From Desulfocapsa sulfexigens DSM 10523 (lineage in GTDB: Bacteria > Desulfobacterota > Desulfobulbia > Desulfobulbales > Desulfocapsaceae): a DNA stretch of 32,000 bases. The stretch lies in assembly GCF_000341395.1 (NCBI RefSeq), contig NC_020304.1, positions 2,730,001 through 2,762,000 of the forward strand. Direction: 5' to 3'. A program made the translations under genes and the position numbers. How positions within the stretch are numbered: position 1 is the first letter of the stretch; each line of letters starts with the position of its first letter. Below are positions 3,330 through 31,612 of this stretch, piece by piece. A model generated the notes under the pieces. That model searched no databases, was not told where the DNA came from, and saw only the letters and a program-made list of their open reading frames with translations.

Positions 3330-3417
3330 TTGAATTGCTTTGGTTAAGTTCGCTCCACTGAATCACATTGAGTGATGTAATATTTAGCTAACTGCAATTG
3401 GAGACAAGTGAATTTTT

Positions 3418-4728: not shown

Positions 4729-4745
4729 AACAGTTTTAAAAAGTT

Positions 4746-4754
4746 AAACCAAAT
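4746..4754. repeat. Target-site duplication, left copy (aaaccaaat)
   Basis: Identical to 6006-6014 and directly abuts the left IR. Confidence 0.8.
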
Positions 4755-7256: not shown

Positions 7257-7366
7257 ATTCCAGCTTAAGAAATTATACTAAAACATGTACTCCCAGCCAT
7301 TATGCCAGTAAATTGTATTAAATGGATTCATTCAAGTTTCTGGTGGGTGAACGTGAGGCTTCGGGA

Positions 7367-9132: not shown

Positions 9133-10302
9133 ATGAATATTCTATTTGTTCTCTATCACGATTTCAGTACTTCCAGTGCAATACATGTGCATAACTTCGC
9201 GAACCTTTTAGCGAAAAACGGTTGTAACTGTGCGGTGGCAGTACCTGCAAATAAAGAGTCTGTTACGGAGTATTTAGGTGGTGACGTACTTTACCAACCC
9301 TGTACTTTTGCCGAATCCCTTGAGCGATCGGTTGAGCTGTTTAGTGGGGAGGCGATGGATATCATTCATGCCTGGACACCACGGGAAAATGTCAGAAAAC
9401 AGTGTGATCTACTGAAAAAGCGATATCCTGGAAGTAAGCTGATTGTCCATCTTGAGGATAATGAAGAGATGATTGTAGAGTCCTTTGTCGGCCTGCCCTA
9501 CGATCAAATCCGTTCCTTATCCGAAGAGCGTTTACGGTTTCTGTTACCAGATTTGCTGGCATCCCCCTATCATTATCCTCTTTTTTTAGAGCAGGCAGAT
9601 GCGGTGTCAGTTATTACCGATGCATTACTGGATTTTGTTCCCTCCCATAAAGTCTATCACAGATTATGGCCAGCGATAGACTTGCGTCGTTTTAGTCCCG
9701 AGATTGATGGACGAGCCGTAAGAAATCGTCTGGGGTTTTCTGAAGATGATTTTCTCATCTGTTACGTCGGAAGTGTTCATGGGGTCAATGCTCAGGAAGT
9801 CCGAAGTCTGTATCAGGCTGGATTCATGGCAAACGATCTTGGTATACCGGTACGATTGATACGTGCCGGAAGGGATGTAGTGGATTTTCTGGGAGCAGAT
9901 AAAGATGAGTTGCAACGATATGTGACGAATGTAGGCTATGTTGATATGGATGATGTGCCTGGATTAATGGCAGCTGCAGATTTATTGGTGCAACCAGGGG
10001 AAAATGATCGTTTTAACAGGTATCGCCTGCCGTCAAAAATTCCAGAGTTTCTTGCCGTTGGCAAACCTGTTGCTGTTCCTCGCGTAAACATCGGGCTTCA
10101 TTTGCAAGACAGAGAGAACGCTTTTCTCATGGAAACAGGTGATGCCGCTTCAATTGTTGCTGTGATCCGTCTGATCTCTAATGACCGGGAGCTAGGTGAA
10201 AGGATTGGTGCTAACGGCAGGACGTTTGCCGAGCTCAATTTTTCCGAGGATACAGTGTATGGAAAGTTATCTGCCTTTTATGAGTCTGTTTTAGCATTAT
10301 GA
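9133..10302 (+). CDS. Glycosyltransferase, GT4-like (GT-B fold)
   Basis: A GAGGGGAG RBS precedes ATG 9133. The protein begins MNILFVLYHDFSTSSAIHVHNFA. The C-terminal half has FLICYVGSVHG and AADLLVQPGENDRFNRYRLPSKIPEFLAVGKPVAVP. Confidence 0.8.
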   Translation: MNILFVLYHDFSTSSAIHVHNFANLLAKNGCNCAVAVPANKESVTEYLGGDVLYQPCTFAESLERSVELFSGEAMDIIHAWTPRENVRKQCDLLKKRYPGSKLIVHLEDNEEMIVESFVGLPYDQIRSLSEERLRFLLPDLLASPYHYPLFLEQADAVSVITDALLDFVPSHKVYHRLWPAIDLRRFSPEIDGRAVRNRLGFSEDDFLICYVGSVHGVNAQEVRSLYQAGFMANDLGIPVRLIRAGRDVVDFLGADKDELQRYVTNVGYVDMDDVPGLMAAADLLVQPGENDRFNRYRLPSKIPEFLAVGKPVAVPRVNIGLHLQDRENAFLMETGDAASIVAVIRLISNDRELGERIGANGRTFAELNFSEDTVYGKLSAFYESVLAL

Positions 10303-15650: not shown

Positions 15651-15725
15651 ACCGTATTCTTGGTGAATATTGCATGCAGTTAATCGGCAACCTGCCTCCA
15701 TGGTTTTAAACAGAGAGTGATAAAC

Positions 15726-17585
15726 ATGAATACTATATTGAAGAAATGGAAGTTTCCAATTTTTCTAGGGGTATTGCTTTCTGTTTTGTACGTTCAGTTG
15801 TTTGAGAACAGAGCCTTTGTGGAACTGGATATTACGGTAACGGAACCCACACTGTTTAAGATCTACTGGGCAGAAAAAGGACAGTTTTACAGTGAAGATA
15901 ATATGGTTCGGGTAAAGGTGAACCCGGAACAACACCAGTATGGTTTTTATCTGACCGATATTGGCAAAGAGGCGATAAGACTCCGTATAGATCCCCAGCA
16001 GTATGTGGGACTCTCCACCATAAAGAAGATTGATTTTCAACAGACGGGCTATGCTCTTTTATCTGTTTCCTCCAGGGAGGATTTCGCCGGGCTGCAGCCA
16101 ATCTTTGATATTCAGGCAGCAAACATAACAGAGGATGGGTTGGAAACTGATTCAACTGGTGTGGATCCACAATTTGAATATTTTCCGGTACTGGAGTCGG
16201 CTGAATATTTCTCTGTTCTGTTAGTGCTTCGAATTGCTTCCATCTTTCTTCTACTGTTTTTGTTTTTTTCCTTAACTGAATCCTATCGGGAAGAAGATAG
16301 GTTTTTTCCGCTTCTGTTTGCCATAGTCCTTGCCCTCGTCGTTGCCATGGCAATGTTGACAAGACGAAACATTCATCCCGACGAATATGTACACCTGGAT
16401 GCGGCCAAGTACTACAGCAGCAATTGGATTCCACCCGATGTGACAGATCCGCAGATTGCCCATACCTACAGTGTTTACGGGGTATCCCGTCTGAATGGCC
16501 CGGAAGTTGCCTATTTCCTGAATGGGAAATTTTCAGAACTTATTTCTGTGTTTCCTCTGCCCGACTATTTGACTTTACGAATATTTAACCTGCTCCTCTT
16601 TACTTTGCTGTTGCTATATATTCTGAAAATTAAAGGAAAGAGGTATGTCGCAGCACCGCTGCTGATATCTCCGCAAATCTGGTATGTCTTCAGTTATTGC
16701 AACTCCGATGCCTTTGCATTGCTCCTTACTTTTTTTATAGCATGCCAGCTGGCGATTCCTGCCTCAATGCTCAACCTGTATCTTTTGGACAGGGAAAAGA
16801 AGAAAAAATTTGTCACTGCTCTTTTTCTGGTATTCGTTTTTGCGGCAATGTTTTTGTTAAAGAAGAACTATTGGTTCTTTATCGCCTTTGCAGCCGCGTA
16901 CTTTCTCTGGCGACTTGTCTTTATAGTCAGTGCAGAAGACCGAAAACAGGTTGTCAGGAAAATGACCATACTCATCCTGTTTGCTTTGAGTGTGACGGGA
17001 CTGAGAGTAGCAGGAGACTATGCAGTGAACGGATGGGATCGGAGTGAAAAACTGTCACAGATCCGTGAGCAGCTGGCTCATCCGTTTTATAAACCGTCCA
17101 CTCCACTTGAAGAAAAACATCCCTTTTTATACAGGAAGGCACGTGGTGCTTCTTTGAAAGAGATTGTAGTTGTTGATAGATGGTTTGAAAGAAGTTATCA
17201 AAGTGCTTTTGGTATTTATGGATATTTTACCGCCACTGCAGATGACACCTATTATGATCTGATGAGGCCTCTTGCTGTGGTATTTTTTATGGCGCTTCTT
17301 CTTTCGGTTCTTTTTCGTGGAGGCCTGAGTGGAAATATTCTGATGTTCCTCTTTCTTGGTTGTTCCGGAGCAGTTATAGCGGCTTCCCTCTACCACTCGT
17401 GGACTGCAGACTTTCAACCACAGGGAAGGTATCTCTTACCGATGATACCGGCACTTTGTATTGTTCTGTATCATTCGAGAAATCTTATGCAGAACGTATT
17501 GTTCAGAATATGTCTAATGGGTATGTTTTTGTTATCCACCTACTCTTTTCTTTTTGTTGGAATGATGCAACTCACTAAAATGTAG
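15726..17585 (+). CDS. Polytopic membrane protein, GT-C-fold glycosyltransferase-like (PMT/ArnT-like DE motif), with an N-terminal extracytoplasmic RIDP module
   Basis: An N-terminal TM is followed by a ~135-aa soluble module and then at least 10 hydrophobic segments. HPDEYVHLDAAKYY sits in the loop after TM3, resembling the acidic first-loop motif of GT-C enzymes. The start is ATG 15726 or GTG 15717. Confidence 0.6.
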   Translation: MNTILKKWKFPIFLGVLLSVLYVQLFENRAFVELDITVTEPTLFKIYWAEKGQFYSEDNMVRVKVNPEQHQYGFYLTDIGKEAIRLRIDPQQYVGLSTIKKIDFQQTGYALLSVSSREDFAGLQPIFDIQAANITEDGLETDSTGVDPQFEYFPVLESAEYFSVLLVLRIASIFLLLFLFFSLTESYREEDRFFPLLFAIVLALVVAMAMLTRRNIHPDEYVHLDAAKYYSSNWIPPDVTDPQIAHTYSVYGVSRLNGPEVAYFLNGKFSELISVFPLPDYLTLRIFNLLLFTLLLLYILKIKGKRYVAAPLLISPQIWYVFSYCNSDAFALLLTFFIACQLAIPASMLNLYLLDREKKKKFVTALFLVFVFAAMFLLKKNYWFFIAFAAAYFLWRLVFIVSAEDRKQVVRKMTILILFALSVTGLRVAGDYAVNGWDRSEKLSQIREQLAHPFYKPSTPLEEKHPFLYRKARGASLKEIVVVDRWFERSYQSAFGIYGYFTATADDTYYDLMRPLAVVFFMALLLSVLFRGGLSGNILMFLFLGCSGAVIAASLYHSWTADFQPQGRYLLPMIPALCIVLYHSRNLMQNVLFRICLMGMFLLSTYSFLFVGMMQLTKM

Positions 17586-17654: not shown

Positions 17655-19274
17655 GTGAAACTGATTCCACTGCTAATGGCATTATCAGTTGCTCTGCTTG
17701 CCTGCTTTGTTCTTCCCAGTGGTATGGCGAAGGTTTCTGCTATCTCTTTAATCGTTTCGTCTGACAGTCAGGATTCGGTACAAATATTTCTTGATGGTTC
17801 CTATAGGAAGCCCTCTTTTATAGAGAGTAACGCCTCAGAGTTGCAGAAGATGCCGGTGAAAGATGCAGGGAAGGTTCTTTTTCGGTTTTCTGCCACGCCT
17901 TCAACTACCTGGATTCGTATTGATCCTGGAGAAAATCCCGGCGTCACTCGTATCTACGGAATGGTTGTTCAGCAGGCACTTGGACGAAAAGTACAGTATA
18001 GCAGTGATGATATATTCAAGGGCTTTCAGCCAGGCAGAAATGGGGTCACCATAAGTCCTGGAAAGGATTATGTTGAGATTGTCTCCACCGTGGCAGATCC
18101 ATCCATTGTCTCAGTCCCGGGGTTCATTACTGCACCCAGACCTGTTTTTTTCTATCTGCCCGTTATAATCCTCTCATTTTTTCTCTATGTTTTTCTGGCA
18201 CAGTTGAAACCAGAAACTATTCGTACCATTTTCCTTCCTCAGAGAGAACTTCGTCCCGGAGTTGCCATGATTTCACCTCTTGATGGTTTGCGCGGTATTG
18301 CCGCCATGCTGGTTGTCGCAGATCACACCTGGTCATGGTTTCTTGGTGCCGGTGCAAGTGGAGTCTTGATTTTTTTTGTTTTAAGCGGATTTCTGCTGAG
18401 CAGGCCTTTTGTTGTAAATCCGGGAAAATATCAAAATCCGGGGAGTCTGCTTGTCTATGGAGTAAGACGGTTGCAGCGAATTGTACCCATGTACTATTTG
18501 TACCTCTTTCTTACCTTTGGGATGACCTTACGTCTGCATGAATTGTTCATGCATCTCTTTTTTATTGAAGCTGCGGGCCATTTATGGGCAATTCCTCAGG
18601 AGATGGCCTTTTATATCGTATTTCCTCTTCTCGCCCTGTTTAACTTTTTTGTCCTGCGAAGCCGGCTGGTCCTGATCATTCCCGGTTTATTACTGATGAT
18701 TTTTCTCTGGCATTCGTTTGCGACCATTAAATATATTTATTTATTCGGGATGATGAATGCAAAAATTCCATTTCGTCTCGATGCTTTTTTGATAGGTGTG
18801 TTGTGTGCATACCTCTATTTCGGTCTCTGGCAAAAAAACGAACTGACAATGCCATCTGTGCTGAAAAAAGGTTTTATTGTGGTCGGTTGTATTTTACTGG
18901 CAGTCTTTATCGCATTGTCAAATGGATATTTGCTGCATAATGGTCTCATTTATGCTCAAATCTATTATTTATACTACGCAATCTGCGCCGGTTTTTTGAT
19001 CCTCATACTCTGTAGTTCCGGAGAGAATTTTCTTACTAAAATCCTGTCCAGTCGCCTGCTCTCATCTCTGGGAGTTGTGAGTTACAGCCTCTATCTCTTC
19101 CATCCACTGGTTATTCCTTTAGTGAAGCGGGCCGGGGGAGGGACTTTGAACTCAATTCCGGGCGTGCGATTTGTACTGGTGCTGTTTATAGGCTATATTG
19201 TGGCCTGCCTTTTGTATCATTTTATAGAACGCCCTATTTTGGGCTATGGAATAAAGAAAAACATTCGTGAGTAG
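17655..19274 (+). CDS. Acyltransferase family 3 (OafA/YrhL-type membrane O-acyltransferase) with an N-terminal extracytoplasmic RIDP module
   Basis: The AT3 signature ISPLDGLRGIAAMLVVADHT...GVLIFFVLSGFLLSRPF is followed by multiple TM segments and a C-terminal YSLYLFHPLV. It is preceded by a signal/TM segment and a ~130-aa module. Confidence 0.85.
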   Translation: MKLIPLLMALSVALLACFVLPSGMAKVSAISLIVSSDSQDSVQIFLDGSYRKPSFIESNASELQKMPVKDAGKVLFRFSATPSTTWIRIDPGENPGVTRIYGMVVQQALGRKVQYSSDDIFKGFQPGRNGVTISPGKDYVEIVSTVADPSIVSVPGFITAPRPVFFYLPVIILSFFLYVFLAQLKPETIRTIFLPQRELRPGVAMISPLDGLRGIAAMLVVADHTWSWFLGAGASGVLIFFVLSGFLLSRPFVVNPGKYQNPGSLLVYGVRRLQRIVPMYYLYLFLTFGMTLRLHELFMHLFFIEAAGHLWAIPQEMAFYIVFPLLALFNFFVLRSRLVLIIPGLLLMIFLWHSFATIKYIYLFGMMNAKIPFRLDAFLIGVLCAYLYFGLWQKNELTMPSVLKKGFIVVGCILLAVFIALSNGYLLHNGLIYAQIYYLYYAICAGFLILILCSSGENFLTKILSSRLLSSLGVVSYSLYLFHPLVIPLVKRAGGGTLNSIPGVRFVLVLFIGYIVACLLYHFIERPILGYGIKKNIRE

Positions 19275-19339: not shown

Positions 19340-20413
19340 ATGAGTTTTAGTAAAGGTCCGGAAAGAGGAATACTCTTTAAGGTCACAGTAATAATAGTGT
19401 TTTTGTTTTTGTTTTTGCTTTGTCTTTTGTTCGGTGCTGAACTTTTTGTTCGTTTTTTTTATCGTGACGTGCTCTCCACTGCAGATGGAACTTCCTATTT
19501 TTCCCTGAAAAACCAGAGATTGTTTGAAAAAGAAAAGAACGGTTTTAATTTACGGGGAAAACAGTTCAGGCAAACTCCTGACGATCGCTACAGACTTGTG
19601 ATTCTAGGAGATTCCTTTACATGGGGCCAGGGTGTTTATCCGGTAGAGAAACGCTATACCGAACAGATTGATGTAGCACTCAATAAACAACAGAAAGAAA
19701 ACGAAATTGAAGTTGTCAATGTCGGCATCTGCGGATTTAACCTTCCTAATCATTATAAGTTTCTTCATTTTATTGATGCAATTCAGCCCGATTATGTGTT
19801 GTACCAATGGTATATTAATGATATGTCAATCCGACCCGACGCCGGTCAGTACAAATCATCCCATCTGATCACAAATCGAAAAGTGCATACCTGGCTATGG
19901 AAGCATTCAGCCCTCTATTATCTTTTGCAGAGAGGGTATGGAAGCCTGCAAAGGAAACAGGGGGAAAAGAAGACTTATGAGCAGTACATGTTTGATACTC
20001 AAAAGGATCCAACAGGTGAATCTGTAGTAGCTGCACGGAAATTGCTTGAGAAATATATAGATCATTATAAAAGTACCGATACTGATTTTGGTATGGTTCT
20101 GTTTCCAAGTTTTGCCGGGCCTATGAATAATTATAACTTAGATTTTCTTCACGAACAGGTACTCGATGTTTGTAAGGAAAAGAAAATAGAATGCCTGGAC
20201 TTACGTGATGCCTATCGTGATGTCGAGGATAATACGGCATTATGGGCAAATGTTTTTGATCCCCATCCTGGAGTGTTGGCACATAAGATAGCTGCAGAGG
20301 CAATCTATGATTTTTTTGGTGCCGACTGGGAAGAGGCGGCACAGAAAGTTAGCGTTCACAGGGATCTTCATAGTCAAAAAAATAATGATAAAGCTCAAGC
20401 GGAGATGAAGTAA
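19340..20413 (+). CDS. Membrane-anchored SGNH/GDSL hydrolase-type esterase/acyltransferase
   Basis: N-terminal TM: VTVIIVFLFLFLLCLLFGAELFV. Block I is RLVILGDSFTWGQG, block II is VNVGICGFN, and block V is FDPHPGVLAHKIAAEAI (DxxH). Confidence 0.85.
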   Translation: MSFSKGPERGILFKVTVIIVFLFLFLLCLLFGAELFVRFFYRDVLSTADGTSYFSLKNQRLFEKEKNGFNLRGKQFRQTPDDRYRLVILGDSFTWGQGVYPVEKRYTEQIDVALNKQQKENEIEVVNVGICGFNLPNHYKFLHFIDAIQPDYVLYQWYINDMSIRPDAGQYKSSHLITNRKVHTWLWKHSALYYLLQRGYGSLQRKQGEKKTYEQYMFDTQKDPTGESVVAARKLLEKYIDHYKSTDTDFGMVLFPSFAGPMNNYNLDFLHEQVLDVCKEKKIECLDLRDAYRDVEDNTALWANVFDPHPGVLAHKIAAEAIYDFFGADWEEAAQKVSVHRDLHSQKNNDKAQAEMK

Positions 20414-20871
20414 TGAGTGTTCCCTATACACAAAATAAGGTGTCTCAAGCAATCTGGTCATGGCAGTCTGATCGATCTGGAAAACAACAAGCAAAAGCTT
20501 CCCTCGGCATTGCCATTGGAGCTCTGTTGGTAGGATGCACTGTCGCTTCATTGTTGTTCTTCTACAACCATTTGATAATGGCTTCAATTGTCTTTAGCGT
20601 TTCCGCTTTGGTATTTCTTTCTTCTCAATTTTTTCCGGCTGTTTATTCCGTAATTGAAAAGATTTTTCAAAAGTTTGCTCTTATTATCGGTACAGGCCTG
20701 ACGTGGGTTTTTCTCCTGCCTTTTTTCTTTATCTGTTTTCCAATGGGTAGAATAGTGCAAAAAATTAAAGGAAAGGATCCCATGCAGCGAGATTTTAAAA
20801 GAGACGCTACGTCCTATTGGCAGACATCCAGGAAAACACCCTCGGTTGATGAGTATAAGAGGCAATTTTGA
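20413..20871 (+). CDS. SxtJ-like small membrane protein (carbamoyltransferase-associated)
   Basis: 152 aa with 3-4 TM segments and a C-terminal GKDPMQRDFKRDATSYWQ, typical of SxtJ-family proteins. TAATG overlap upstream and TGATG overlap with the carbamoyltransferase gene downstream. Confidence 0.65.
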   Translation: MSVPYTQNKVSQAIWSWQSDRSGKQQAKASLGIAIGALLVGCTVASLLFFYNHLIMASIVFSVSALVFLSSQFFPAVYSVIEKIFQKFALIIGTGLTWVFLLPFFFICFPMGRIVQKIKGKDPMQRDFKRDATSYWQTSRKTPSVDEYKRQF

Positions 20872-22697
20872 TGAATATTTTAGGTATCAGTGCATATTAC
20901 CATGATTCGGCTGCTGTCTTGATTCGCGATGGTCAAATCATTGCTGCAGCTCAAGAGGAGCGGTTTACCAGGATTAAACATGATCATGATTTTCCCCATA
21001 ATGCAATACGCTATTGTCTTGCAGAGGCAGGTATTGAAGGTGAGCAGCTTGATGCTGTGACTTTTTACGACAAGCCGATCCTGAAGTTTGTAAGGATTAT
21101 GGAGACCTATTTTAGTGTAGCTCCCAGGGGACTGGCTTCTTTTATGAAGGCAATGCCACTCTGGACCAGGCAGAAATTATGGATCCCCTATTATATAGAA
21201 AAAGGCTTGGCAGGCTGTGGAGTCAGCACTAAAAATATTTACTTTACTCAACATCATGAATCACATGCTGCCTCTTCTTTTTATCCATCACCCTTTGATG
21301 AGGCTGCTGTTCTCACCATGGATGGAGTGGGGGAATGGGCCACGGCAACCATTGCCGTAGGTCGTGGTAATAAGATTGAGATGGTCAAGGAGCTCTGTTT
21401 TCCACATTCTCTGGGCTTGCTCTATTCAGCAATTACCTATTTCTGTGGATTTCGGGTCAACTCTGGAGAATATAAACTAATGGGATTAGCTCCCTATGGT
21501 TCTCCAAAATATGTGGATCGTATTCTTGAGAACCTTTTAGATCTCAAGGAGGATGGCTCCTTTCGCCTGGATATGAAATATTTTGGCTATATGGATGGAT
21601 TACGGATGACTGGTCCATTGATGGATGTGCTTCTCGATGGTTCTCCCCGCGAACCTGAAAGTCCTATCACGACTCGAGAAATGGATATAGCGGCCTCTAT
21701 CCAGGTGGTAACTGAGATGATAGTCCTGAAGATGGCTCGTTATACCCGTGAAATAACCGGTATGAAAAATCTGTGTCTTTCAGGAGGGGTTGCTTTGAAC
21801 TGTGTTGCCAACGGGCGATTGCTTCGAGAGGGAATCTTTGATGATATCTATATTCAGCCAGCATCAGGTGACGCCGGTGGTGCTCTTGGAGCAGCATTGT
21901 TGACCTGGTATCAAATTAATGATCAGCCTCGTAGCAGTAATAATAAAGATGATTCGATGCAGGGATCCTATCTTGGACCCTCCTTTGAGGACGATGAAAT
22001 CGAAGCCTACCTTAGGGCAAATAACTATGTGGCAAGAAAGGTTGAAGGAAAGGACTGGGCCCGTGAGATTGCCGGCTATATTGCAAATGAAAAAGTGGTA
22101 GGACTGTTTCAGGGAAGGATGGAATTTGGTCCACGCGCCCTTGGTTGCCGCTCTATTATAGGTGATGCCAGATCGACAAATATGCAGTCGACGATGAACC
22201 TCAAGATTAAATACAGGGAATCGTTCAGGCCGTTTGCTCCTTCATGTCTTGAGGAAAAGGTTGGAGAGTATTTCGATATTGACAGGCCATCTCCCTATAT
22301 GCTTATTGTTGCCGATGTCAGAAAAGAACGCTGTCTGGAGGTTGAGGGTGACAATACGGTAGTGTTTGAGGAACAGATCAACCAGTTGCGATCCGATATC
22401 CCGGCTATAACGCATGTTGATTACTCTGCTCGTATTCAGACGGTTTCTCCAAAAACGAATAAGCCCTACTATGATATTATCAAGGCTTTCGATGAATTGA
22501 CCGGCTATGGTGTGATAATTAATACATCCTTTAATGTCCGTGGTGAGCCCATTGTTTGTACTCCTGAGGATGCCTACCGATGCTTTATGCGGACTGAGAT
22601 GGATTGCCTGGTTCTTGGATCTTTTCTGCTTGAAAAGTCCGAACAGCCTGAATTTGTAGATAATGCCAATTGGCGCAATGAGTATCAGCTTGATTAG
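20871..22697 (+). CDS. Carbamoyltransferase (NodU/CmcH family)
   Basis: MNILGISAYYHDSAAVLIRDGQIIAAAQEERFTRIKHDHDFP, then HHESHAASSFYPSPF, LTMDGVGEW, CLSGGVALNCVANG, IQPASGDAGGALGAA, and the C-terminal NTSFNVRGEPIVCTPEDA. Confidence 0.92.
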   Translation: MNILGISAYYHDSAAVLIRDGQIIAAAQEERFTRIKHDHDFPHNAIRYCLAEAGIEGEQLDAVTFYDKPILKFVRIMETYFSVAPRGLASFMKAMPLWTRQKLWIPYYIEKGLAGCGVSTKNIYFTQHHESHAASSFYPSPFDEAAVLTMDGVGEWATATIAVGRGNKIEMVKELCFPHSLGLLYSAITYFCGFRVNSGEYKLMGLAPYGSPKYVDRILENLLDLKEDGSFRLDMKYFGYMDGLRMTGPLMDVLLDGSPREPESPITTREMDIAASIQVVTEMIVLKMARYTREITGMKNLCLSGGVALNCVANGRLLREGIFDDIYIQPASGDAGGALGAALLTWYQINDQPRSSNNKDDSMQGSYLGPSFEDDEIEAYLRANNYVARKVEGKDWAREIAGYIANEKVVGLFQGRMEFGPRALGCRSIIGDARSTNMQSTMNLKIKYRESFRPFAPSCLEEKVGEYFDIDRPSPYMLIVADVRKERCLEVEGDNTVVFEEQINQLRSDIPAITHVDYSARIQTVSPKTNKPYYDIIKAFDELTGYGVIINTSFNVRGEPIVCTPEDAYRCFMRTEMDCLVLGSFLLEKSEQPEFVDNANWRNEYQLD

Positions 22698-22872: not shown

Positions 22873-23037
22873 ATGCATTTTATAAAACATTTGTTTTCCT
22901 TATTGGGTGAAGTATTTCAGTTTGCCTGGAAGAATAAGGTATGGTGGATAGTACCTGTAGTTCTGGTTTTTCTCGGTATTGGCCTCTTAATAGTTGTTGG
23001 TGAAACGGCTGCTCCGTTTATCTATACTCTGTTTTAA
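22873..23037 (+). CDS. DUF5989/SxtK-like small membrane protein (54 aa); below the ORF-track size cutoff
   Basis: Hand translation: MHFIKHLFSLLGEVFQFAWKNKVWWIVPVVLVFLGIGLLIVVGETAAPFIYTLF*. A single TM and the C-terminal APFIYTLF are characteristic of the DUF5989 family usually found beside carbamoyltransferase and SxtJ genes. Confidence 0.75.
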   Translation: MHFIKHLFSLLGEVFQFAWKNKVWWIVPVVLVFLGIGLLIVVGETAAPFIYTLF

Positions 23038-23264: not shown

Positions 23265-25874
23265 GTGCAATATCGTCCTGACATCGATGGCTTACGGTCA
23301 GTTGCGGTACTCAGTGTAATACTCTTTCATATAAATAATAGTCTGGTGCCAGGCGGCTTTGTCGGGGTCGATATCTTTTTTGTTATCTCCGGGTACCTGA
23401 TTACCACAATTATTGTTGGCGGCATTTCTAATAACAGTTTTTCCCTGGTCAGGTTTTATTCACGAAGGGTAAAACGCATTTTTCCTGCATTATTTTTGGT
23501 TTTGTTCTTTTCGTTACTCTTTGCCGTAGTGACCTTTGAACCAACAACCTATGATAAATTCTTTAAGGAATTGCGTTACGCAGCCCTGCAAATTTCAAAT
23601 TTTGTTTTTTCCCGGGAGATTGGCTATTTTGATGCCGCCAACGAAACATCTCCATTACTGCATACCTGGTCCCTTGGTGTAGAAGAACAATTTTATCTGA
23701 TTTGGCCAATATTCCTCCTCTTCCTGCACAGGTTCTGTAAGAACCGGATAGCACAGTCGCTATCAGTAGTTTCTATTATTTCATTTATCTACAGTGACCA
23801 TCTGGCTTCCTCGGCACCGCAAATTGCCTTTTATATGCTGCCATCACGGGCATGGGAACTCGGGATTGGTGGTTTGCTGGCTGTGTCGATGACGTCAATT
23901 AGCAAATCCAGATGGCTTAATAATTTGATCTCATTGCTGGGAGTGCTGCTGGTTCTGACCTCTGTCTGTGTAATTAACGACAGCTACACCTTTCCTGGGA
24001 AATGGGCTCTTCCACCGGTTATTGGGGCAGTACTTCTGATCTTCAGTGGGGCTTCCCGTAATACGGTTGCATATCATGTTCTGTCGTGGAAACCATTTGT
24101 CTTTATAGGAAAAATATCTTACTCACTCTACCTCTGGCATTGGCCAATAATTGTTTTTTACAAAGAGTTGATTGCCCCAGATATCAGTTTGACAGCAGGC
24201 ATAGCGATTCTGCTCCTAACTGTGATAATGTCCCTGTTGTCATTCTTTCTGGTTGAAAAGCCCTGTCGTTATGGGGTTTATCCTCAGGTTCCGCAAAAAA
24301 TATATACATATATATCAGAGACCACATTGCTTCGAAAAGTTGCATATGTACTGATTCCGGTGCTTCTATTACCCTTGGCTGCCACATCATTACTGTCCGG
24401 TTTTAATACAATTGAAGAAAATAATGAACTTACTTCCCTTGAAATAGAGGTCGAACTGATAAAAAGTAATGACCCATCAAAAAAGGAGGCCATTACTCTC
24501 TACTGGACTAACAGTGACGGTCATTTCGAGAAGAAGGCCTGGTCGAGACATTCTTATAGTCCTGAAAATGTAGTTAAAAACAATTTATATCGTTTTGTTT
24601 TTAAACTGCCGGACCTGAGTAAGGTTGGCACTGTCAGGCTTGACCCCTTGGATCACAAGGGAGTTGTACGTGTTATCAGTGTCACCTTGACAGAGGGGAT
24701 TTTCAATCTGCGTCGCAGTGTTGAAATGAGTGAGGTTGCGGCCAATATGTCTGGAGAATATCATCTACAGGCACGATATGAAAATGATGCTCTGTTGCTT
24801 GAAACCCTGGGGGAAGATCCTCAGATAATACTTTTCCAAAGTATTTCTAAAACCATTTTAGAAAATGCGCTCATATATTTGATCTTCTTAAGTATTTTTT
24901 CCTTAACCGTTCTTTCCATAATGCTTTTTGGTTCTGGGAATGAAGAGCTTGCTGCCATTCTCACGGGTAGCGTGATTATCATTCTACTCCTGTTGAGTTC
25001 TGCACGGTTACAATATTCCAGTCATGCAAAATGGCGTTTTCTTGATGATGAACAGGCCAGTTTTCTTCTGACAGAAACTCCCATGACAGAGCTGGCAACA
25101 TTTGCCAAGCCTGATAATCAGGACGTTATTTTGATAGGGGATTCCCATGTCGGGAGTTTTGCATGGCCAGTGGAAAGGTGGAGCAGAGAGGCAGGACTTT
25201 CTTTTGGCTTGTTCGGACTTCCAGCGTGTCCTCCTGTTTTTTATGACTATAAGTCTAATGTGAAAAGAAAAATTAGCAGCCAATATTCTGCCTGTGCCAA
25301 CTCTACCAATAAGATATTGAAGGATATAATAGACAATGACACTACACAATATGTTTTTATAGCTATCAGGCACGAGTTTTATATGGCAAATCCTGAGAAA
25401 CTTTTTCACCCAGATACCCTTAAAAATCTAAAGGGAGAAGATTCTGTCCTTGGGTTGTTTAAGGATTCCATTGTATACACAATTCAGGCATTGGTTGATA
25501 GCGGGAAGAATGTGGTTATTCTCGGTCAAGTTCCAGTTTTGGAGGAACTCCCGAAGACTTGCCTGAGTCGAAATGTCACATTGCTTGCAGCATTTTCCAA
25601 AACAAATAAATCCTCCTGTGACATGGATAAGGAGAAGAGTGACTTGAGATTGCAAGCGGGCAATGAGCTCTTTTTGGAAATTGCGGAGAAGAGTGAAAGT
25701 GTATGGTTTTTTGAATCAGGCAAATATCTGGAGACTATATTTGCCGATGACGGATCGATATTCTATTACGATGACAATCATCTGAGTCATAAGGGCTCCG
25801 TGTATATATATCCTTTTATTAAGGGCTCTTTAAAACAAGCAGATAATCATGGTTTTGGTAAAACTTCCTGGTAG
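23265..25874 (+). CDS. Fused AT3 acyltransferase - RLDP module - TM hairpin - SGNH domain protein (OafA/OafB-like O-acyltransferase with an inserted domain)
   Basis: AT3 signature: YRPDIDGLRSVAVLSVILFHI...GVDIFFVISGYLIT...HTWSLGVEEQFYLIWP...YSLYLWHWPI. The C-terminal SGNH-like domain has VILIGDSHVGSF and YYDDNHLSHKGS (DxxH). About 200 aa between them form the module plus two TM segments. Confidence 0.85.
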   Translation: MQYRPDIDGLRSVAVLSVILFHINNSLVPGGFVGVDIFFVISGYLITTIIVGGISNNSFSLVRFYSRRVKRIFPALFLVLFFSLLFAVVTFEPTTYDKFFKELRYAALQISNFVFSREIGYFDAANETSPLLHTWSLGVEEQFYLIWPIFLLFLHRFCKNRIAQSLSVVSIISFIYSDHLASSAPQIAFYMLPSRAWELGIGGLLAVSMTSISKSRWLNNLISLLGVLLVLTSVCVINDSYTFPGKWALPPVIGAVLLIFSGASRNTVAYHVLSWKPFVFIGKISYSLYLWHWPIIVFYKELIAPDISLTAGIAILLLTVIMSLLSFFLVEKPCRYGVYPQVPQKIYTYISETTLLRKVAYVLIPVLLLPLAATSLLSGFNTIEENNELTSLEIEVELIKSNDPSKKEAITLYWTNSDGHFEKKAWSRHSYSPENVVKNNLYRFVFKLPDLSKVGTVRLDPLDHKGVVRVISVTLTEGIFNLRRSVEMSEVAANMSGEYHLQARYENDALLLETLGEDPQIILFQSISKTILENALIYLIFLSIFSLTVLSIMLFGSGNEELAAILTGSVIIILLLLSSARLQYSSHAKWRFLDDEQASFLLTETPMTELATFAKPDNQDVILIGDSHVGSFAWPVERWSREAGLSFGLFGLPACPPVFYDYKSNVKRKISSQYSACANSTNKILKDIIDNDTTQYVFIAIRHEFYMANPEKLFHPDTLKNLKGEDSVLGLFKDSIVYTIQALVDSGKNVVILGQVPVLEELPKTCLSRNVTLLAAFSKTNKSSCDMDKEKSDLRLQAGNELFLEIAEKSESVWFFESGKYLETIFADDGSIFYYDDNHLSHKGSVYIYPFIKGSLKQADNHGFGKTSW

Positions 25875-25996: not shown

Positions 25997-26039
25997 AAGT
26001 ATCGGCATCACCGTATGTCGTTTGAACCATTGGGAAGAC

Positions 26040-29000
26040 ATGAATTTGGTCAATAGTAGGAAAAATTGGTATAGAGCTGGCGTCTTTTTGTTTTCTGCGA
26101 TTGTTCTTTTGCTGCTTTATTTCTTGTCGTTGCAGGGAGAAGTGACGATTGAAACAGATATTAATGATCGTTTTCAGATTTTCTGGTCCGATGGAACGGG
26201 CTACTATAGCGAAAATAACTCTGCAACAGAATATCCAGTTGAGTATCTCGAAAATAATACTGTAACCAGGTTCCGAACAGGTAACCTCTCTAAAATTGAT
26301 AACATCAGAATTGATCCATTGTTTGGCAGTGGAAAATTCAAGATTTTTTCTATTCAGATCTCTCAGCCGGGTTATAAAACGATGTCTTTTAGTACCCAGG
26401 GAGAACTGAAGCGCCTCATGCCAGTTAATCATTTGTCAGATTTCCAGGTAACTGAAAATGGCATATCGGCGATATCTAATGGTAATGATCCTCAGATCAT
26501 GCTGCCTTTTCAGGCAAGATTGTCCTGTTTTTGGGTACTATCCAGGCTTTCAGCTTCTCTTGCTATCGTTATAGTAGCTTTTTTTGTGGTGAAGAGTTGT
26601 TTCAAGCATAAGAACCTTTTTGCCGGCGCCATCTTTCTCGCGAATATCTTGATCGTTGGTTTGCTTATTCTTGGTTGGTGGACGAGCAAAGATAATACTC
26701 TTTTTCAGAATGGCCGATGGACTGTTGGTAAGGATGCAGGGAAGTTTGTTTTTCAGACCTATGAGTTTATGTCTGCACCAATGAGTGGTTCTGGGATTTC
26801 TCTTACTGCTAATATGGGGTTCCAGGAGATTACATATAAAAACCACGATAGTGATACTCGTCGTTTAGAAGAATTGTCCTGTCAGGTGTATATTGGTCCT
26901 CAAGCGTATGTCTGGGTTGAGCTGGAAAAAAAAGATCAACAGATGTTGGGTGTCAGAATATCACGAAATGGAGAGTATAAGAGCGGTTTTTACACCTATT
27001 CGTCTAAAGGAAAACTCGTCAGCAAACAGTTGCTGCAAATTCCCAAGGACATGCTTAATTCTTCGAGTCGTATTGTCCTTTCACGTCAAAATGGAACATG
27101 GACCCTGGCGGTTAATGACAGACAAATGGGATCGAGTTTAGCTATTGATAATAAAAACAGTACGTTCGGGTTTCGTGGCTGTACTACGGGACGAGAAATG
27201 TATTTACGAAATATTGAAATGAAGTTTGTTGATCCAGTCACAGAGAAAAGATGGGTTGAAACCGAGGATTTTGGGCCTTCTGCTTCAAAGCAGCGCAGTA
27301 CTCCCTGGATATTTGTTTTTGTTAGTATTGTGTTGCTCGTAAAAGCAGTTCGGGATGAGGTGTTGATGAATTATTTGCCATCAGATAAACACCATCGTTT
27401 CAGGCTGTTAAGTCAATTGTCCCTTTTCGTTCCAGCATCCGCGGCCTTGTTGTTCTTTTTTAGGGACTCCATTTATGCGACGCCATTCTCGTTTTTAGTT
27501 GCAGAGTTGGTGGTTGTTGTGGGGTTTGCTTTGTTTTTTGAACAGGAAAAGGTGCACCTGGGTACCAAAAAATGGTTGTCAGTGCTGTATGTCATTGGCA
27601 TCTTGCTGGTATCGGGATGTTCTTTTTTGGTGAACGATACGATATTACAATCTTCACAGAGAGTTTCCAATAAGAATTTGAGTCGTATTGATCCGGGAAT
27701 TTACATTACTACCCCTCAGGCTCCTCCAACAAAAGTGCCCTATGTAGCCACTGCGCCAATAGTGATTAAGGCCGGACAGCCATTTTTTGTTCCTGGTGTA
27801 TTCAGGGAGCAGGTGATTGACCTTGTTTTTTCCCTTCCTGAACAGACTACACTTGATATTGTTTTTGAACAGCAGGGTTTTGTCACGCGTGGAGATTCTG
27901 ATGGTGAAGCTATACCACTTCAACGTCGATTGCTTCGCTTGTCAACCAAGTCAGGTGTCGTTTCAGGCTTAAGTACAAAAACTGGAGTACGTTCAGCTCC
28001 CTTTATGAAGATTAATGGTGAGTTGTTGGTTCATGCGAACAATAAGGTATCTATTACTGTCACAAATAAAAGGGTTAAGCTGAATTTGAATGGTGTTCTT
28101 ACTACCTTTGATCAGTTTGGGTTGCTTGGTTTTGGGGAGACTGGGTTTTTGACTTATGAAAATTCAGTGAATTTGAAAGCTGTATCGGTCACCCCAACTG
28201 AGCTGAAAGCAGGTCCGGGTAACAAAATGTATTTATTTATGTTTTTTGTTCCTTTTGTCTTTGCATTCCTCCTGTTCTTTCTCTTTCGTCTGGCTGGTCC
28301 TGTTGCTTTATTCCCTACTGCGATTCTTGCTCTTTGTTCCTATTATCCAATAGTTGTGTTGTTAACTGCTGGTATGTTTCTTCCTTCTGGTAGTCTCCAT
28401 TTTCTGAGCGATGGAAGACTCGGGTGGTTATTTATAATGGCGGCGGCCGTTGCGGTAAATTTGTTTTGTATTCTGATCTACGCTAAGAGGCAGATAAAAA
28501 TTCCTGCCTTATATGCTAATCTCCTCTCTCTTATAGTCATTGTGGCAGTTGCTGGTTACGTCTATGTGATATTGCCAGATGATAATCCTATAAAATTGAG
28601 ATTTTCTCAAAATACAATTGCCCCAGGAGATATTGCTCATGCTGAGGAGAAGAAACATGTGCCCTGGTATGCTGACAATTCGTTAATCGGCACGAATATC
28701 TGGGTTTGGAGTCAACTTTTTGGTGGAGAGAAGGCAGTGCCGGGTTCAGGAAATACTAAAGATGCAGTACGAATATTTGTTATCGGCGGTAGTCAGGCCT
28801 GGGGCTCCGGTGCTGCAAATAGTGATAGTACTTTTTCAAAATTGCTTGAGAAAAAATTACTGGATAAGAAATTACCCGTTCAAGTGTTAAATGCTGGAAC
28901 AAATGCTGTGGGCCTCCAGACTATCACCCGGTCCAATAAACAGCTTTTACCAATTTATGAGCCTGATATTATAATTATTGATGTTGGGACCAATGACTCT

Positions 29001-29390
29001 GGAGCACGTAAAATGGTCCCGGGAGTTAAGAATCAACAAAGGTTTGTGCATGACAGGCTAATGGATTTTCGGACATTTGTTGAGTTTTTTCAGGGACAAG
29101 GTGTACGAATTATCTTAAATTTAGAGGCTATGTGTGCGGAGAGCTATGATAACTTTTCTCCAGATCCTGAACTGTATGACGGCTTGAAAAAAATTGCGGA
29201 AGACACAGGGGTTTCTGTGATAGTTCCGTCAAGTGTAACTGAACAGATTGAAAAAGAGTATCCGCTATGGTGGGACATTGCCCATTTGACGCCATATGGA
29301 CAGCAGGTGATGGCTGAAATACTCTTACCGACAACTGAGAAATTGGTTAATGAAGTGTTAAAGAGCAGCATGTCAGGGAGAGCTTTGTAA
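26040..29390 (+). CDS. Giant (~1116 aa) polytopic membrane protein: N-terminal RIDP module, two jelly-roll-like extracytoplasmic domains separated by TM bundles, C-terminal SGNH hydrolase domain
   Basis: A single uninterrupted ORF; the start is ATG 26040 or TTG 26022. There are about 11-12 hydrophobic segments. The C-terminal SGNH blocks are VRIFVIGGSQAWGSGA, LNAGTNAVG, IIDVGTNDS and WWDIAHLTPYGQ. No AT3 signature is present. Confidence 0.8.
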   Translation: MNLVNSRKNWYRAGVFLFSAIVLLLLYFLSLQGEVTIETDINDRFQIFWSDGTGYYSENNSATEYPVEYLENNTVTRFRTGNLSKIDNIRIDPLFGSGKFKIFSIQISQPGYKTMSFSTQGELKRLMPVNHLSDFQVTENGISAISNGNDPQIMLPFQARLSCFWVLSRLSASLAIVIVAFFVVKSCFKHKNLFAGAIFLANILIVGLLILGWWTSKDNTLFQNGRWTVGKDAGKFVFQTYEFMSAPMSGSGISLTANMGFQEITYKNHDSDTRRLEELSCQVYIGPQAYVWVELEKKDQQMLGVRISRNGEYKSGFYTYSSKGKLVSKQLLQIPKDMLNSSSRIVLSRQNGTWTLAVNDRQMGSSLAIDNKNSTFGFRGCTTGREMYLRNIEMKFVDPVTEKRWVETEDFGPSASKQRSTPWIFVFVSIVLLVKAVRDEVLMNYLPSDKHHRFRLLSQLSLFVPASAALLFFFRDSIYATPFSFLVAELVVVVGFALFFEQEKVHLGTKKWLSVLYVIGILLVSGCSFLVNDTILQSSQRVSNKNLSRIDPGIYITTPQAPPTKVPYVATAPIVIKAGQPFFVPGVFREQVIDLVFSLPEQTTLDIVFEQQGFVTRGDSDGEAIPLQRRLLRLSTKSGVVSGLSTKTGVRSAPFMKINGELLVHANNKVSITVTNKRVKLNLNGVLTTFDQFGLLGFGETGFLTYENSVNLKAVSVTPTELKAGPGNKMYLFMFFVPFVFAFLLFFLFRLAGPVALFPTAILALCSYYPIVVLLTAGMFLPSGSLHFLSDGRLGWLFIMAAAVAVNLFCILIYAKRQIKIPALYANLLSLIVIVAVAGYVYVILPDDNPIKLRFSQNTIAPGDIAHAEEKKHVPWYADNSLIGTNIWVWSQLFGGEKAVPGSGNTKDAVRIFVIGGSQAWGSGAANSDSTFSKLLEKKLLDKKLPVQVLNAGTNAVGLQTITRSNKQLLPIYEPDIIIIDVGTNDSGARKMVPGVKNQQRFVHDRLMDFRTFVEFFQGQGVRIILNLEAMCAESYDNFSPDPELYDGLKKIAEDTGVSVIVPSSVTEQIEKEYPLWWDIAHLTPYGQQVMAEILLPTTEKLVNEVLKSSMSGRAL

Positions 29391-29742: not shown

Positions 29743-30873
29743 GTGGCAGTGAGTAGCAAGAAGAAAAAAATTGCCTTAAAAGCTGTTTTCAGCCTGGCTT
29801 TTATCTATGTTTTGTTTTCATTTGTACAGGGCAATCAGCTGCTCTTGATGTTTCAGCGGATTAACTGGTTTTACCTGTCCTTGTCTTTGCTGTTAACTCC
29901 GGTCATGATTGCAGTGAGTTGCTGTAAATGGATGATGATTCTGAACGCAGGACAGAATAATGTTCCGTTTTTGACACTGTTTCGCATCTATCTGATTGGG
30001 TATTTCTTTTCCAATATGCTGCCGTCAACGGTTGGCGGCGATGTTGTTAGATCCTATTATACCGGCAAGATTATTCAGGATCAGTCCTATTCGGCAATTG
30101 CCATTTTCATAGAGCGTTTCTCCGGTATTTTCTTTCTTTTTCTTCTCGTTCTCTTTGCACCACTTGTAAAGCCGTCACTCTACTTGAGTCCCTTTGTCTT
30201 TGTTCCAGTTATCGCCTCCCTTATTCTCACTCTCAGTACTCTCTGGATGGCAAAGGTCAAAAAACCGTTTGTTTTTGCCGATGTGATTGTTGCCTCTGGT
30301 TTAAAGGTTTTCAGAAAAACAATGGTACTGTTTGGTAGAAAAGACCCCCAGGTATTCATCGGAACAATTGAAGATCACTATAAAGCATTTATACAGCGGC
30401 TAGAAAAGTTGCATCTCAAGGTGGTCCAGGCATTTGAGACAATCTTTAAAGATAAAATATTATTTTTGAAGTTGACATTTGTTACGGCTCTTTTTTATCT
30501 GCTTACCTGGGTTAATGTGTCTCTTGCGTTACTGGCGTTTGGTGTTAACCATCAGTTTTCCGATATTTGCGCCCTGGTGCCAACTATCCTCTTTGTTGCC
30601 CATTTTCCAGTTACCATTCTCGGGAACCTGGGGTTTTTTGAGTCAGTTTTTGTTTTTTATCTTCTGCTGGTCGATATCCCAGGCAACGGTTCTCTGGCCA
30701 TGGGATTACTTTTACGAATGAAAATGTTGCTTATCGGTATTGTCGGTTTTTATGTTTATCTTGTATATAAACACGCTACGGGGGATGATGCGAAGCAGTT
30801 AGGGGCGGTGGATGAAAAAAAGCACCTAAGCAGTGATGTGAAAAAGGAGTCTCCTGAAAATGATAGTTGTTGA
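29743..30873 (+). CDS. Flippase-like membrane protein (lysylphosphatidylglycerol-synthase TM-region / UPF0104 family)
   Basis: About 8 TM segments and the family motif LIGYFFSNMLPSTVGGDVVRSYY. GTG start at 29743, with 29749 as an alternative. Confidence 0.75.
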   Translation: MAVSSKKKKIALKAVFSLAFIYVLFSFVQGNQLLLMFQRINWFYLSLSLLLTPVMIAVSCCKWMMILNAGQNNVPFLTLFRIYLIGYFFSNMLPSTVGGDVVRSYYTGKIIQDQSYSAIAIFIERFSGIFFLFLLVLFAPLVKPSLYLSPFVFVPVIASLILTLSTLWMAKVKKPFVFADVIVASGLKVFRKTMVLFGRKDPQVFIGTIEDHYKAFIQRLEKLHLKVVQAFETIFKDKILFLKLTFVTALFYLLTWVNVSLALLAFGVNHQFSDICALVPTILFVAHFPVTILGNLGFFESVFVFYLLLVDIPGNGSLAMGLLLRMKMLLIGIVGFYVYLVYKHATGDDAKQLGAVDEKKHLSSDVKKESPENDSC

Positions 30874-31612
30874 AAAAAAATCTATCCAGGAAAAGGTCTC
30901 TGGCAACTCCGGAATGTTTGCTAAATACAGAGTGGCAATGGTTGGTGACGGTGGGAACCTGACTCTTTTCCTGTATGAACTGATTAACTTTTTTTGTACA
31001 CCCGTGCCGGGGATATCGGGTGTTTTGTTTAGGAGATTGTTTTTTCCTCTGCTGCTTGGGAAAATCGGTACAGCTGTTCGTATTTACGAAAACTGCACGA
31101 TACGCAATGGTCGTAATATTGTGCTAGGTGATAATGTTTGTATTGAAAAGGAAGTCACGCTGGACGTGAAACCCGGGGAAAATAAAATTGTACTCGGTGA
31201 TAATGTTATCATAGGAAACCGTGTAATCTTCAATTGCTCTGGTGGTGTGATTTCCATCGGTGACGGGACAGTGGTTGGATCGCATTGTCGACTCGGTTCT
31301 TTACTTGGTAACACGATAGGCTGTCATTGCAGAATAGGCAGAGATAGTTGTATTGTCGGGGCAGGTCATGCCACCGGTGATCTTGAGAAAGCCATCGTTC
31401 GCCAGCCGATAACCTGTAATGGCCCGAGCATTATCGGCGATTATGTGTCAATTGGGGAAAGAGTCACTCTGCTGGATGGGGTCAGGGTTGGTTCACATGT
31501 CACAATCTGTTCCGACTCCCTGGTGCTTCAGGATATCCCTGATAATTGTACTGTTTCAGGAGTCCCTGCAAAGATCATTTCCAAAGAGTCGGTTCAGGGG
31601 AGAAGACTGTAA
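30860..31612 (+). CDS. Hexapeptide-repeat (left-handed beta-helix) acyl/acetyltransferase
   Basis: Repeated [LIV]G-x4 hexapeptides: IVLGDNVCIEKEV, IVLGDNVIIGNRV, ISIGDGTVVGSHC, IGCHCRIGRDS, IIGDYVSIGERV and VRVGSHVTI. The start overlaps the upstream gene by 14 nt. Confidence 0.85.
   Translation: MIVVEKKSIQEKVSGNSGMFAKYRVAMVGDGGNLTLFLYELINFFCTPVPGISGVLFRRLFFPLLLGKIGTAVRIYENCTIRNGRNIVLGDNVCIEKEVTLDVKPGENKIVLGDNVIIGNRVIFNCSGGVISIGDGTVVGSHCRLGSLLGNTIGCHCRIGRDSCIVGAGHATGDLEKAIVRQPITCNGPSIIGDYVSIGERVTLLDGVRVGSHVTICSDSLVLQDIPDNCTVSGVPAKIISKESVQGRRL

Follow-up and report, generated by a model that had tools for sequence, protein, structure and literature searches.

The open reading frame (ORF) that runs without interruption from position 26022 to 29390 on the + strand of the sequence analysed here, a stretch of 32,000 nucleotides from Desulfocapsa sulfexigens DSM 10523 (NC_020304.1) which we call the window, encodes a large polytopic membrane protein. 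Two domains with a predicted jelly-roll fold are held between its transmembrane (TM) helices, and the protein ends in an SGNH/GDSL domain. We propose, with moderate confidence, that it is a membrane-integral, periplasm-facing and glycan-directed SGNH esterase or acyl-editing enzyme. The parts from which it is built are known and their arrangement is new, LamG-type domains being threaded between TM hairpins of a scaffold which is neither AT3 nor MBOAT; the architecture is also rare. The window itself is a surface-polysaccharide cluster, with genes for glycosyltransferases, a HAD-like protein, two AT3 and three SGNH proteins, a carbamoyltransferase and hexapeptide acetyltransferases.

The SGNH domain and the two jelly-roll domains

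In the ORF list the protein has 1122 aa counted from a TTG codon at 26022. Judged from its relatives, the true start is the ATG at 26040, for a product of 1116 aa, because a near-identical metagenome protein of 1117 aa (P0001, which starts MNLVNSR) and all orthologues begin at MNL(V/I)NSR; GGGAAG lies directly 5' of this ATG. Residue numbers throughout this text nevertheless count from the TTG at 26022 and not from the ATG. A search of 5.8 billion protein clusters returned 13 relatives. Nine of them are full-length orthologues of 1096-1119 aa with 53-100% identity, stemming from JGI, NCBI, ENA and Logan assemblies and colinear with the protein studied here. The other four, of about 940 aa and with 31-37% identity, are missing only TM1, the RIDP module and TM2. 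Besides the nine orthologues, the family counts about 30 representatives that are more remote. The initial annotation had described a single ORF of about 1116 aa at this place and had named a fusion of several genes by assembly error as the alternative; nine colinear full-length orthologues from independent sources rule out the latter, and on this comparison the ORF is one real gene. A megablast search of the gene against plasmids gave no match.

An AlphaFold2 model built on a 40-sequence family alignment (mean predicted local distance difference test score, pLDDT, 87; predicted template modelling score, pTM, 0.78) agrees with hydropathy on the order of the parts: TM1, RIDP module, TM2-TM3, domain A, TM4-TM7, domain B, TM8-TM11, linker and SGNH domain (Table 1). 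The layout which the initial annotation had read from the letters (one TM helix, RIDP module, two helices, A, four helices, B, four helices, SGNH) is thus reproduced, and the boundaries given there for A (26700-27235), B (27660-28195) and SGNH (28765-29330) were right within a few codons.

Lipase_GDSL_2 is the sole Pfam family recognised in the protein (residues 920-1096, 36.3 bits against a cut-off of 32.9), and it is matched by all 40 family members. The four sequence blocks on which the SGNH domain had been proposed are all present, namely GGSQAWGSG (922-930), NAGTNA (957-962), GTND (989-992) and DIAH (1085-1088), block I reading GGS and not GDS. S924, N957, D1085 and H1088 do not vary in the 40-sequence alignment, and at least 90% of its members have G964, N991 and D992. 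The catalytic positions are S924 (28791-28793), D1085 (29274-29276) and H1088 (29283-29285), together with G964 and N991. This region is modelled as an alpha/beta/alpha SGNH fold with pLDDT >90, and Foldseek aligns it with Axe2, AlAXEase and GDSL lipases (TMt 0.65-0.81). Since the domain keeps an intact Ser-Asp-His triad and the oxyanion-hole residues, it should perform serine-esterase chemistry. Its nearest solved relatives, both by sequence and by fold, are hydrolases, that is, the TesA-like esterase 9otv, the acetylxylan esterases 7ddy and Axe2, and GDSL lipases.

The best match of the SGNH domain among PDB sequences is a lysophospholipase L1-like esterase, and TesA matches too. Together with the source annotation ('lysophospholipase L1-like esterase') and the tethering of the active domain at the membrane surface, this would be consistent with a lysophospholipase L1/TesA-like enzyme whose substrates are membrane lipids or the lipid moiety of lipid-linked intermediates, with the beta-sandwiches in a structural or regulatory role. 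We regard such a lipid-directed activity as improbable, as the two lectin-fold domains and the polysaccharide-cluster context point to a glycan substrate, and annotation names of this type are generic family transfer, not experiment.

When a profile of 35 domain A sequences was compared with PDB sequences, neurexin LNS ranked first (E 2.8e-4), followed by galectin, laminin LG, CBM66 and SHBG, and nearly all of the 29 weak PDB matches were LamG/ConA-like chains; the match spans the classic 'W-H-x-V ... L-x-V-D-G' strands. Sub-threshold Pfam matches to DUF1080, Laminin_G_3, Laminin_G_2, DUF1583_N or DUF6250 were obtained with about 20 of 98 short relatives, which contain domain A. Conserved residues of the domain include W233, K237, G266, R312, S314 and G383-F384 (the FGFRG motif), and Q268 and E269, which belong to the MGFQE motif, hardly vary in the 35-sequence set. 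Domain B, modelled alone, reaches a pLDDT of 90, and its best Foldseek matches are the DUF1080/3-keto-disaccharide hydrolase structures 3u1x, 8v31 and 4jqt (TMq 0.54-0.60), after which come galectins, CBM66 and the C-terminal sandwiches of GH32 enzymes; the Foldseek probability is 1.0 for DUF1080, galectin and CBM66 structures, and 222 matches have E <= 1e-3. With the full-length model as query, tandem galectins, neurexin LNS, laminin LG and BT3469 align over 470-830 columns spanning both domains. The LamG/DUF1080-type concanavalin-like folds suggested in the initial annotation are borne out by these comparisons. No Pfam family was matched by A or B of the protein itself, B having none even at E <= 1. 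The profile of domain B against PDB sequences gave insignificant matches only, including several beta-sandwich proteins (CBM66/levanase and putative glycosylhydrolases, E ~1-2), and the core profile A2 gave no PDB sequence match.

The initial annotation had also noted that A and B end in similar strands and had taken this as a sign of internal duplication. With 40-sequence profiles, hhalign aligns the two domains over 112 colinear columns, which take in these end strands, at a probability of 89-93% (E 2e-6 to 2.5e-7). The score of 44.8 is far above the maximum of 19.1 among 40 column-shuffled controls and the 14.8 obtained with a reversed profile. The similarity is clear only with profiles of this depth, being insignificant with shallow 13-sequence ones (probability 4%). 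It ends at the edges of the beta-sandwich, and hhalign found nothing in the flanking helices or between TM4-TM7 and TM8-TM11. On the models and profiles, then, A and B are concanavalin-like jelly rolls related at the superfamily level at least. This part of the earlier claim stands; a duplication giving A and B is plausible, while duplication of a whole TM-domain-TM unit is unsupported, since the similarity is confined to the sandwich and the helices are unlike. From the modelled folds we infer that both domains may bind glycans.

Domain B deserves a separate comment. Its motif TLDxVFQQQ..RGD..GE..PLQRRLLRLST is the most conserved one outside the SGNH domain, and its charged residues D612, D625, E629, R635 and R639 are unusually conserved. 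As the top structural neighbours of this domain are DUF1080 enzymes, including the hydratase 8v31, one could imagine that A and/or B are themselves catalytic, resembling DUF1080-type 3-keto-glycoside hydrolases or hydratases, and that the whole protein is a multi-enzyme glycan editor. We think this very unlikely, given that the structural scores quoted above are modest and that domain B has no sequence match to PF06439.

Table 1. Positions in the window of the gene, the parts of its product and neighbouring genes
Feature	Position	Strand	Residues	Basis and remarks
Complete gene	26040-29390	+	1116 aa	ATG start
TM1	26058-26129	+	13-36	Hydropathy, AlphaFold2 helix; only in the ~1100-aa clade
RIDP all-beta module	26139-26507 (wider bound 26133-26531)	+	40-162	AlphaFold2 strands, pLDDT ~80
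TM2-TM3 hairpin	26526-26693	+	169-224	Hydropathy, AlphaFold2
Domain A	26694-27278	+	225-419	LamG/concanavalin-like beta-sandwich; AlphaFold2 all-beta, pLDDT >90
TM4-TM7	27279-27650	+	420-543	Hydropathy, AlphaFold2, conservation
Domain B	27705-28202	+	562-727	Divergent concanavalin-like beta-sandwich, closest to DUF1080
TM8-TM11	28218-28571	+	733-850	Hydropathy, AlphaFold2, conservation
Pre-SGNH segment	28572-28766	+	851-915	Motif PWYADN..IGTN.WVW.Q.FGGE; conserved
SGNH/GDSL domain	28767-29384	+	916-1121	Pfam above threshold, conserved blocks, Foldseek, PDB sequence matches
NodU/CmcH-type carbamoyltransferase	20868-22697	+		Pfam; upstream
DUF5989-like ORF	22873-23037	+	54 aa	ORF list; upstream
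LPG_synthase_TM (PF03706) flippase-like membrane protein	29743-30873	+		Pfam, NCBIfam; downstream
Hexapeptide-repeat acetyltransferase	30860-31612	+		Pfam, NCBIfam; downstream

The membrane scaffold and the proposed mode of action

Hydropathy and the secondary structure of the model give 11 TM helices, grouped as one, two, four and four. With this number of helices the four soluble modules (RIDP, A, B and SGNH) come to lie on the same side of the membrane, and Lys/Arg clusters are found in the short loops opposite: R13, K14 and R18 at the N-terminus, which precede or start TM1, and then KSCFKHK, KVHLGTKK and AKRQIK. Because of these clusters the positive-inside rule would place the N-terminus in the cytoplasm, and all four soluble modules are probably periplasmic.

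In the 40-sequence alignment no part of the protein is less conserved than its TM helices. Only W219, R444, E495, R799, W802 and N833 are more than 80% conserved in the TM regions. Two of these polar residues lie within the helices, E495 (27504-27506) in TM6, conserved in 36 of the 40 members, and N833 (28518-28520) in TM11, conserved in 35; R799 and W802 are kept in 33-34. R444, with K/R441, is at the probable cytoplasmic end of TM4. The conserved WW219-220 closes TM3, the helix with which the core family begins; W220 is present in 31 of 40. The conserved segment between TM11 and the SGNH domain is specific to the long family and forms short helices in the model, with pLDDT <50 at residues 864-877.

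This scaffold does not look like any family of acyl-transfer proteins known so far. No match to the AT3 clan or MBOAT was obtained among the 40 long-family members at E <= 0.1, nor in the protein itself at E <= 1; the same Pfam library readily detects AT3 in both neighbouring AT3 genes. Members of the TmAT superfamily have a contiguous core of 10 TM helices (TMH) with the motifs DxxR(x10H) in TMH1, FxxxxG in TMH2, RxxR in TMH3 and the Tyr of (S)xxxY in TMH9 (PMC12423673), and these motifs are missing among the conserved TM positions of the 40 sequences. The helices are not contiguous but split by soluble domains of 120-200 aa, and the core family has nine of them and the short relatives three. 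A divergent AT3 or MBOAT is therefore rejected by sequence, motifs and topology, in agreement with the initial annotation, which had seen no AT3 signature in the membrane part and had not recognised the architecture as a described family. Neither Pfam nor NCBIfam has a model that covers this architecture (the NCBIfam scan of the protein gave no match), and we found no paper on it in literature searches for SGNH with DUF1080 or SGNH with LamG.

A more radical possibility is that the membrane part is an acyltransferase of its own kind, with a fold unrelated to AT3 and MBOAT. Its nine-helix core, with E495 and N833 inside the membrane and R444 at the cytoplasmic face, would together with the highly conserved domain B take over an acyl (or other) group from a donor in the cytoplasm and relay it to the SGNH domain in the periplasm. 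Such a self-contained relay could account for the conserved polar residues E495, N833, R444 and R799, for the fact that the long family gained six TM helices together with domain B, and for the many loci which have no known partner. If true, it would join AT3/TmAT and MBOAT as a third way of acylating extracytoplasmic glycans. We give it little credence, however. The helices vary more than any other part, no His, Ser or Tyr is conserved within the membrane, and the short relatives need only three helices. Nor do the top 50 Foldseek matches of the full-length model include any membrane protein with which the bundle could be compared.

In the esterase mechanism which we favour, domains A and B, held between TM hairpins, would act as glycan-binding modules that present a polysaccharide of the cell surface, or the lipid-linked precursor of one, to the SGNH domain at the membrane surface. 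The TM bundle would serve as an anchor and might also bind a lipid carrier via E495, N833 and R444, which are conserved. Most likely the enzyme would remove or edit O-acyl (acetyl-type) groups of the polysaccharide from the surrounding cluster. Hydrolysis or editing is favoured because the nearest solved SGNH relatives (9otv, 7ddy, Axe2, TesA) are esterases, because most family members are without a partner able to deliver an acyl group, and because an SGNH domain combined with a jelly-roll carbohydrate-binding module (CBM) is a well-known, standard design of carbohydrate esterases (PMC9487903). Distant long and short members stand alone, with no AT3 or MBOAT neighbour, which fits an enzyme needing no acyl donor, and the short relatives, equipped with the same SGNH and domain A, make do with three TM helices. 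The initial annotation implied an alternative route of periplasmic O-acylation, for which the evidence gives no preference over plain esterase activity.

Several considerations weigh against the esterase model. SGNH hydrolases and SGNH transferases are indistinguishable from sequence, and we know of no family member with an assigned activity or substrate. The conservation of domain B, E495 and N833 exceeds the needs of a passive lectin or anchor, and a simple combination of the two would leave the domain B motif and both intramembrane polar residues unexplained. The eight TM helices that the protein has beyond the three of its short relatives would also be many for an anchor. Furthermore, DUF1080-family domains may be enzymes, as is 8v31, and two AT3 proteins, potential acyl donors, are encoded in the window.

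The RIDP module and the polysaccharide cluster

An all-beta module of about 130 aa, recognisable by the pattern 'R(I/L)DP ... DPQ(I/F)', is common to four membrane proteins of the cluster, including the one discussed here. The other copies are located at 15789-16226 in a 622-aa polytopic protein, at 17727-18149 in a 539-aa AT3 protein and at 24402-24869 in an 869-aa AT3-SGNH protein. In pairwise blastp comparisons three of the six pairs match at E 1e-12 to 5e-6 and a fourth at 1.5e-5; both pairs that give no match involve the module of the 539-aa AT3 protein. Invariant positions are an R, a D, a P, a G and, further on, a DP. The module has no match in Pfam, and a profile of the four copies from the window found no match in the collection of 5.8 billion proteins. 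The RIDP module is missing from family members of about 930 aa; it is probably an accessory periplasmic domain, by which these enzymes may attach to one shared substrate or complex. Profile comparison shows that it is not akin to domain A or B. A second RIDP was claimed earlier at the start of domain B (NLSRIDPG). This string exists in the protein, but it is not conserved in the family, whose consensus at this place is ..HP.A., and the RIDP profile misses domain B; we consider the resemblance to be due to chance.

The polytopic RIDP protein of about 620 aa (15717-17585), which carries the module at its N-terminus and has no match in Pfam or NCBIfam, might, judged by its size and many hydrophobic segments, be a polymerase or a glycosyltransferase of GT-C-like type. 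In two homologous loci, L001 (4443-6302) and L002 (4000-5859), a 619-aa gene without a Pfam match has a similar place upstream of the carbamoyltransferase; the correspondence is one of position only.

The order carbamoyltransferase, DUF5989, family gene, PF03706 gene and hexapeptide acetyltransferase(s) is kept in L001 and L002. The window differs by the insertion of an AT3-SGNH gene (23265-25874) upstream of the family gene; L001 and L002 are without it. The carbamoyltransferase is found upstream of the orthologue in all four loci examined of the Desulfobacterota type (the window and L001 to L003), and in a Desulfocapsaceae metagenome-assembled genome (MAG) it is the sole link retained. A Lentisphaerae homologue (L004) is flanked by a PF03706 gene and a pyruvyl transferase, and a pyruvyl transferase is also near an Omnitrophota homologue. 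Overall, four loci, drawn from two phyla, have a PF03706 gene next to the family gene. Several of the homologous loci are, like the window, polysaccharide gene clusters. The homologues examined from Kiritimatiellia, Verrucomicrobiota and other groups, like the short-family genes examined, have unrelated neighbours, with no AT3, MBOAT or PF03706. Our literature search found no paper linking the carbamoyltransferase with DUF5989, and that on PF03706 was likewise empty.

This neighbourhood bears on the possibility that the protein is a periplasmic O-acyltransferase, in which a separate membrane protein donates an acyl group to the SGNH domain, and this domain passes it to a glycan bound by A and B. 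Either AT3 protein of the cluster or the conserved flippase-like PF03706 neighbour could be the donor. That both AT3 proteins carry the RIDP module suggests a shared complex or substrate, and the recurrent adjacency of the PF03706 gene points the same way, as do a few sub-threshold matches of family members to transferase-type SGNH families (ALGX in 2 of 40, DltD in 1 of 40 and PF19040 in 1 of 40). We nevertheless find such a transferase unlikely. No AT3 gene is near the orthologue in L001 or L002, distant members have no AT3, MBOAT or PF03706 neighbour, and the best SGNH matches are esterases. Moreover, the AT3 proteins of the window already own SGNH partners, fused in one case (23265-25874) and adjacent in the other (19340-20413).

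These two AT3 systems are unusual in themselves. The OafA/OatA-like AT3-SGNH protein encoded immediately upstream of the family gene has AT3 at residues 6-325 and a PF19040 SGNH domain at residues 612-851; between them are the RIDP module and extra hydrophobic segments, an insertion unusual for this fusion family. The other AT3 gene (17655-19274), with the RIDP module at the N-terminus of its product, is followed directly 3' by one for a separate 357-aa SGNH/GDSL protein whose N-terminal hydrophobic segment resembles a TM helix; the pair resembles an AT3-SGNH acyltransferase divided into two proteins.

Some further features of the loci may be recorded. Just upstream of the carbamoyltransferase the window, L001 and L002 each contain a small ORF (152-188 aa), of which that in the window (20413-20871) resembles a membrane protein. 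A 379-aa ORF on the - strand (4765-5904), amid an otherwise + strand glycan cluster, is by eye similar to IS4/DDE-type transposases. Repeated units of about 35 aa with the motif (D/N/S)P(H/S/C)P(L/W)F(D/E/N)..(F/Y)Y occur at 8445-9122, in a 225-aa ORF without a Pfam match, and at 10299-10700, at the N-terminus of a 687-aa ORF among glycosyltransferase-like genes. In L006 (Omnitrophota; 74-2779 and 3374-4705) and L007 (Verrucomicrobiota; 215-4201 and 4526-5875) a long-family gene lies downstream of genes for a large PATR/Big_9/cadherin-like surface protein and a CNNM/CorC transporter; this arrangement may reflect either lineage synteny or a functional link.

A modular family and its relation to known systems

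A core profile (residues 196-862, without SGNH), searched against 1.84 billion representatives, retrieved 460 proteins at E <= 1e-3, about 35 of which are of the long type of ~900-950 aa. Matching genomes are MAGs of Desulfocapsaceae (the closest, with 64% identity), Lentisphaerae, Kiritimatiellae, Verrucomicrobiota and Omnitrophota. Over 100 of the representative matches are proteins of about 510 aa, in which only TM3, domain A and TM4/5 align to the profile; this form, commoner than the one from the window, consists of one TM helix, a domain A of ~190 aa, two TM helices and Lipase_GDSL_2. It shares with our protein domain A, the two helices that follow and the block I sequence S-Q-x-W-G-x-G-A, and is without TM6-TM11, domain B, the pre-SGNH segment and the N-terminal RIDP unit. 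In source annotation such proteins are only 'SGNH/GDSL hydrolase family protein' (e.g. MBN2483349.1, Omnitrophota). Variants with extra N-terminal helices also exist (P0064, P0114 and P0138).

From these sequences we infer a stepwise elaboration. Insertion of TM6-TM7, domain B and TM8-TM11, that is, of six TM helices and B, would have turned the short form of ~510 aa into the long form of ~930 aa, and gain of an N-terminal TM1, RIDP module and TM2 would have produced the Desulfobacterota form of ~1116 aa. One locus (L009) has a short 516-aa family member (316-1866) and a 935-aa GDSL protein of long-form size (6215-9022), flanking a PMT/PMT_2 (GT-C) glycosyltransferase and a 789-aa protein without a Pfam match.

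Three layouts at present account for the acylation and de-acylation of extracytoplasmic glycans in bacteria, namely AT3-SGNH fusions, MBOAT-SGNH pairs and soluble CBM-SGNH esterases. The family described here adds a fourth, lectin-fold domains and SGNH on a polytopic scaffold unrelated to AT3 or MBOAT, in a modular series of ~510, 930 and 1116 aa. It also brings two sequence families without any Pfam model, domain B and the RIDP module. So far it is confined to Desulfobacterota, PVC-group bacteria and Omnitrophota, the relatives being mostly uncultured, and to our knowledge nothing is known of surface-glycan editing in these groups. Should the membrane core prove catalytic, a new mechanism of acyl transfer would be at hand; should it not, the protein would be a membrane-tethered carbohydrate esterase, helpful for annotation and unsurprising.

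Of the known systems, the AT3-SGNH fusions (OafA/OafB, OatA) share with our protein a polytopic membrane region, a C-terminal extracytoplasmic SGNH domain and an occurrence in surface-polysaccharide clusters. It differs from them in having no PF01757, no contiguous 10-TMH core and no DxxR(x10)H, RxxR or SxxxY, and in an SGNH domain of the Lipase_GDSL_2 type, unlike the PF19040 of the fusions. Regarding MBOAT-SGNH systems (PatA/PatB, AlgI/AlgJ/AlgX), no MBOAT was found among the scanned or pre-annotated neighbours in the window and in L001-L013, some small ORFs there being unscanned. DUF1080 (PF06439; 3u1x, 4jqt, 8v31) and CBM66 are the best structural neighbours of domain B, at TM-scores of ~0.55-0.6, but their known members are soluble domains, and A and B are below all Pfam thresholds. 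The CBM-SGNH enzymes, such as CE2 esterases, Bacillus subtilis YxiM/CE12 and Pseudomonas aeruginosa AlgX, likewise combine SGNH with a jelly-roll beta-sandwich for glycan binding (PMC9487903). Those enzymes are soluble and either secreted or periplasmic, whereas in the protein from D. sulfexigens two sandwiches of the LamG/DUF1080 type, accompanied by a third and unrelated beta-module, are part of an 11-helix membrane protein and threaded between its TM hairpins.

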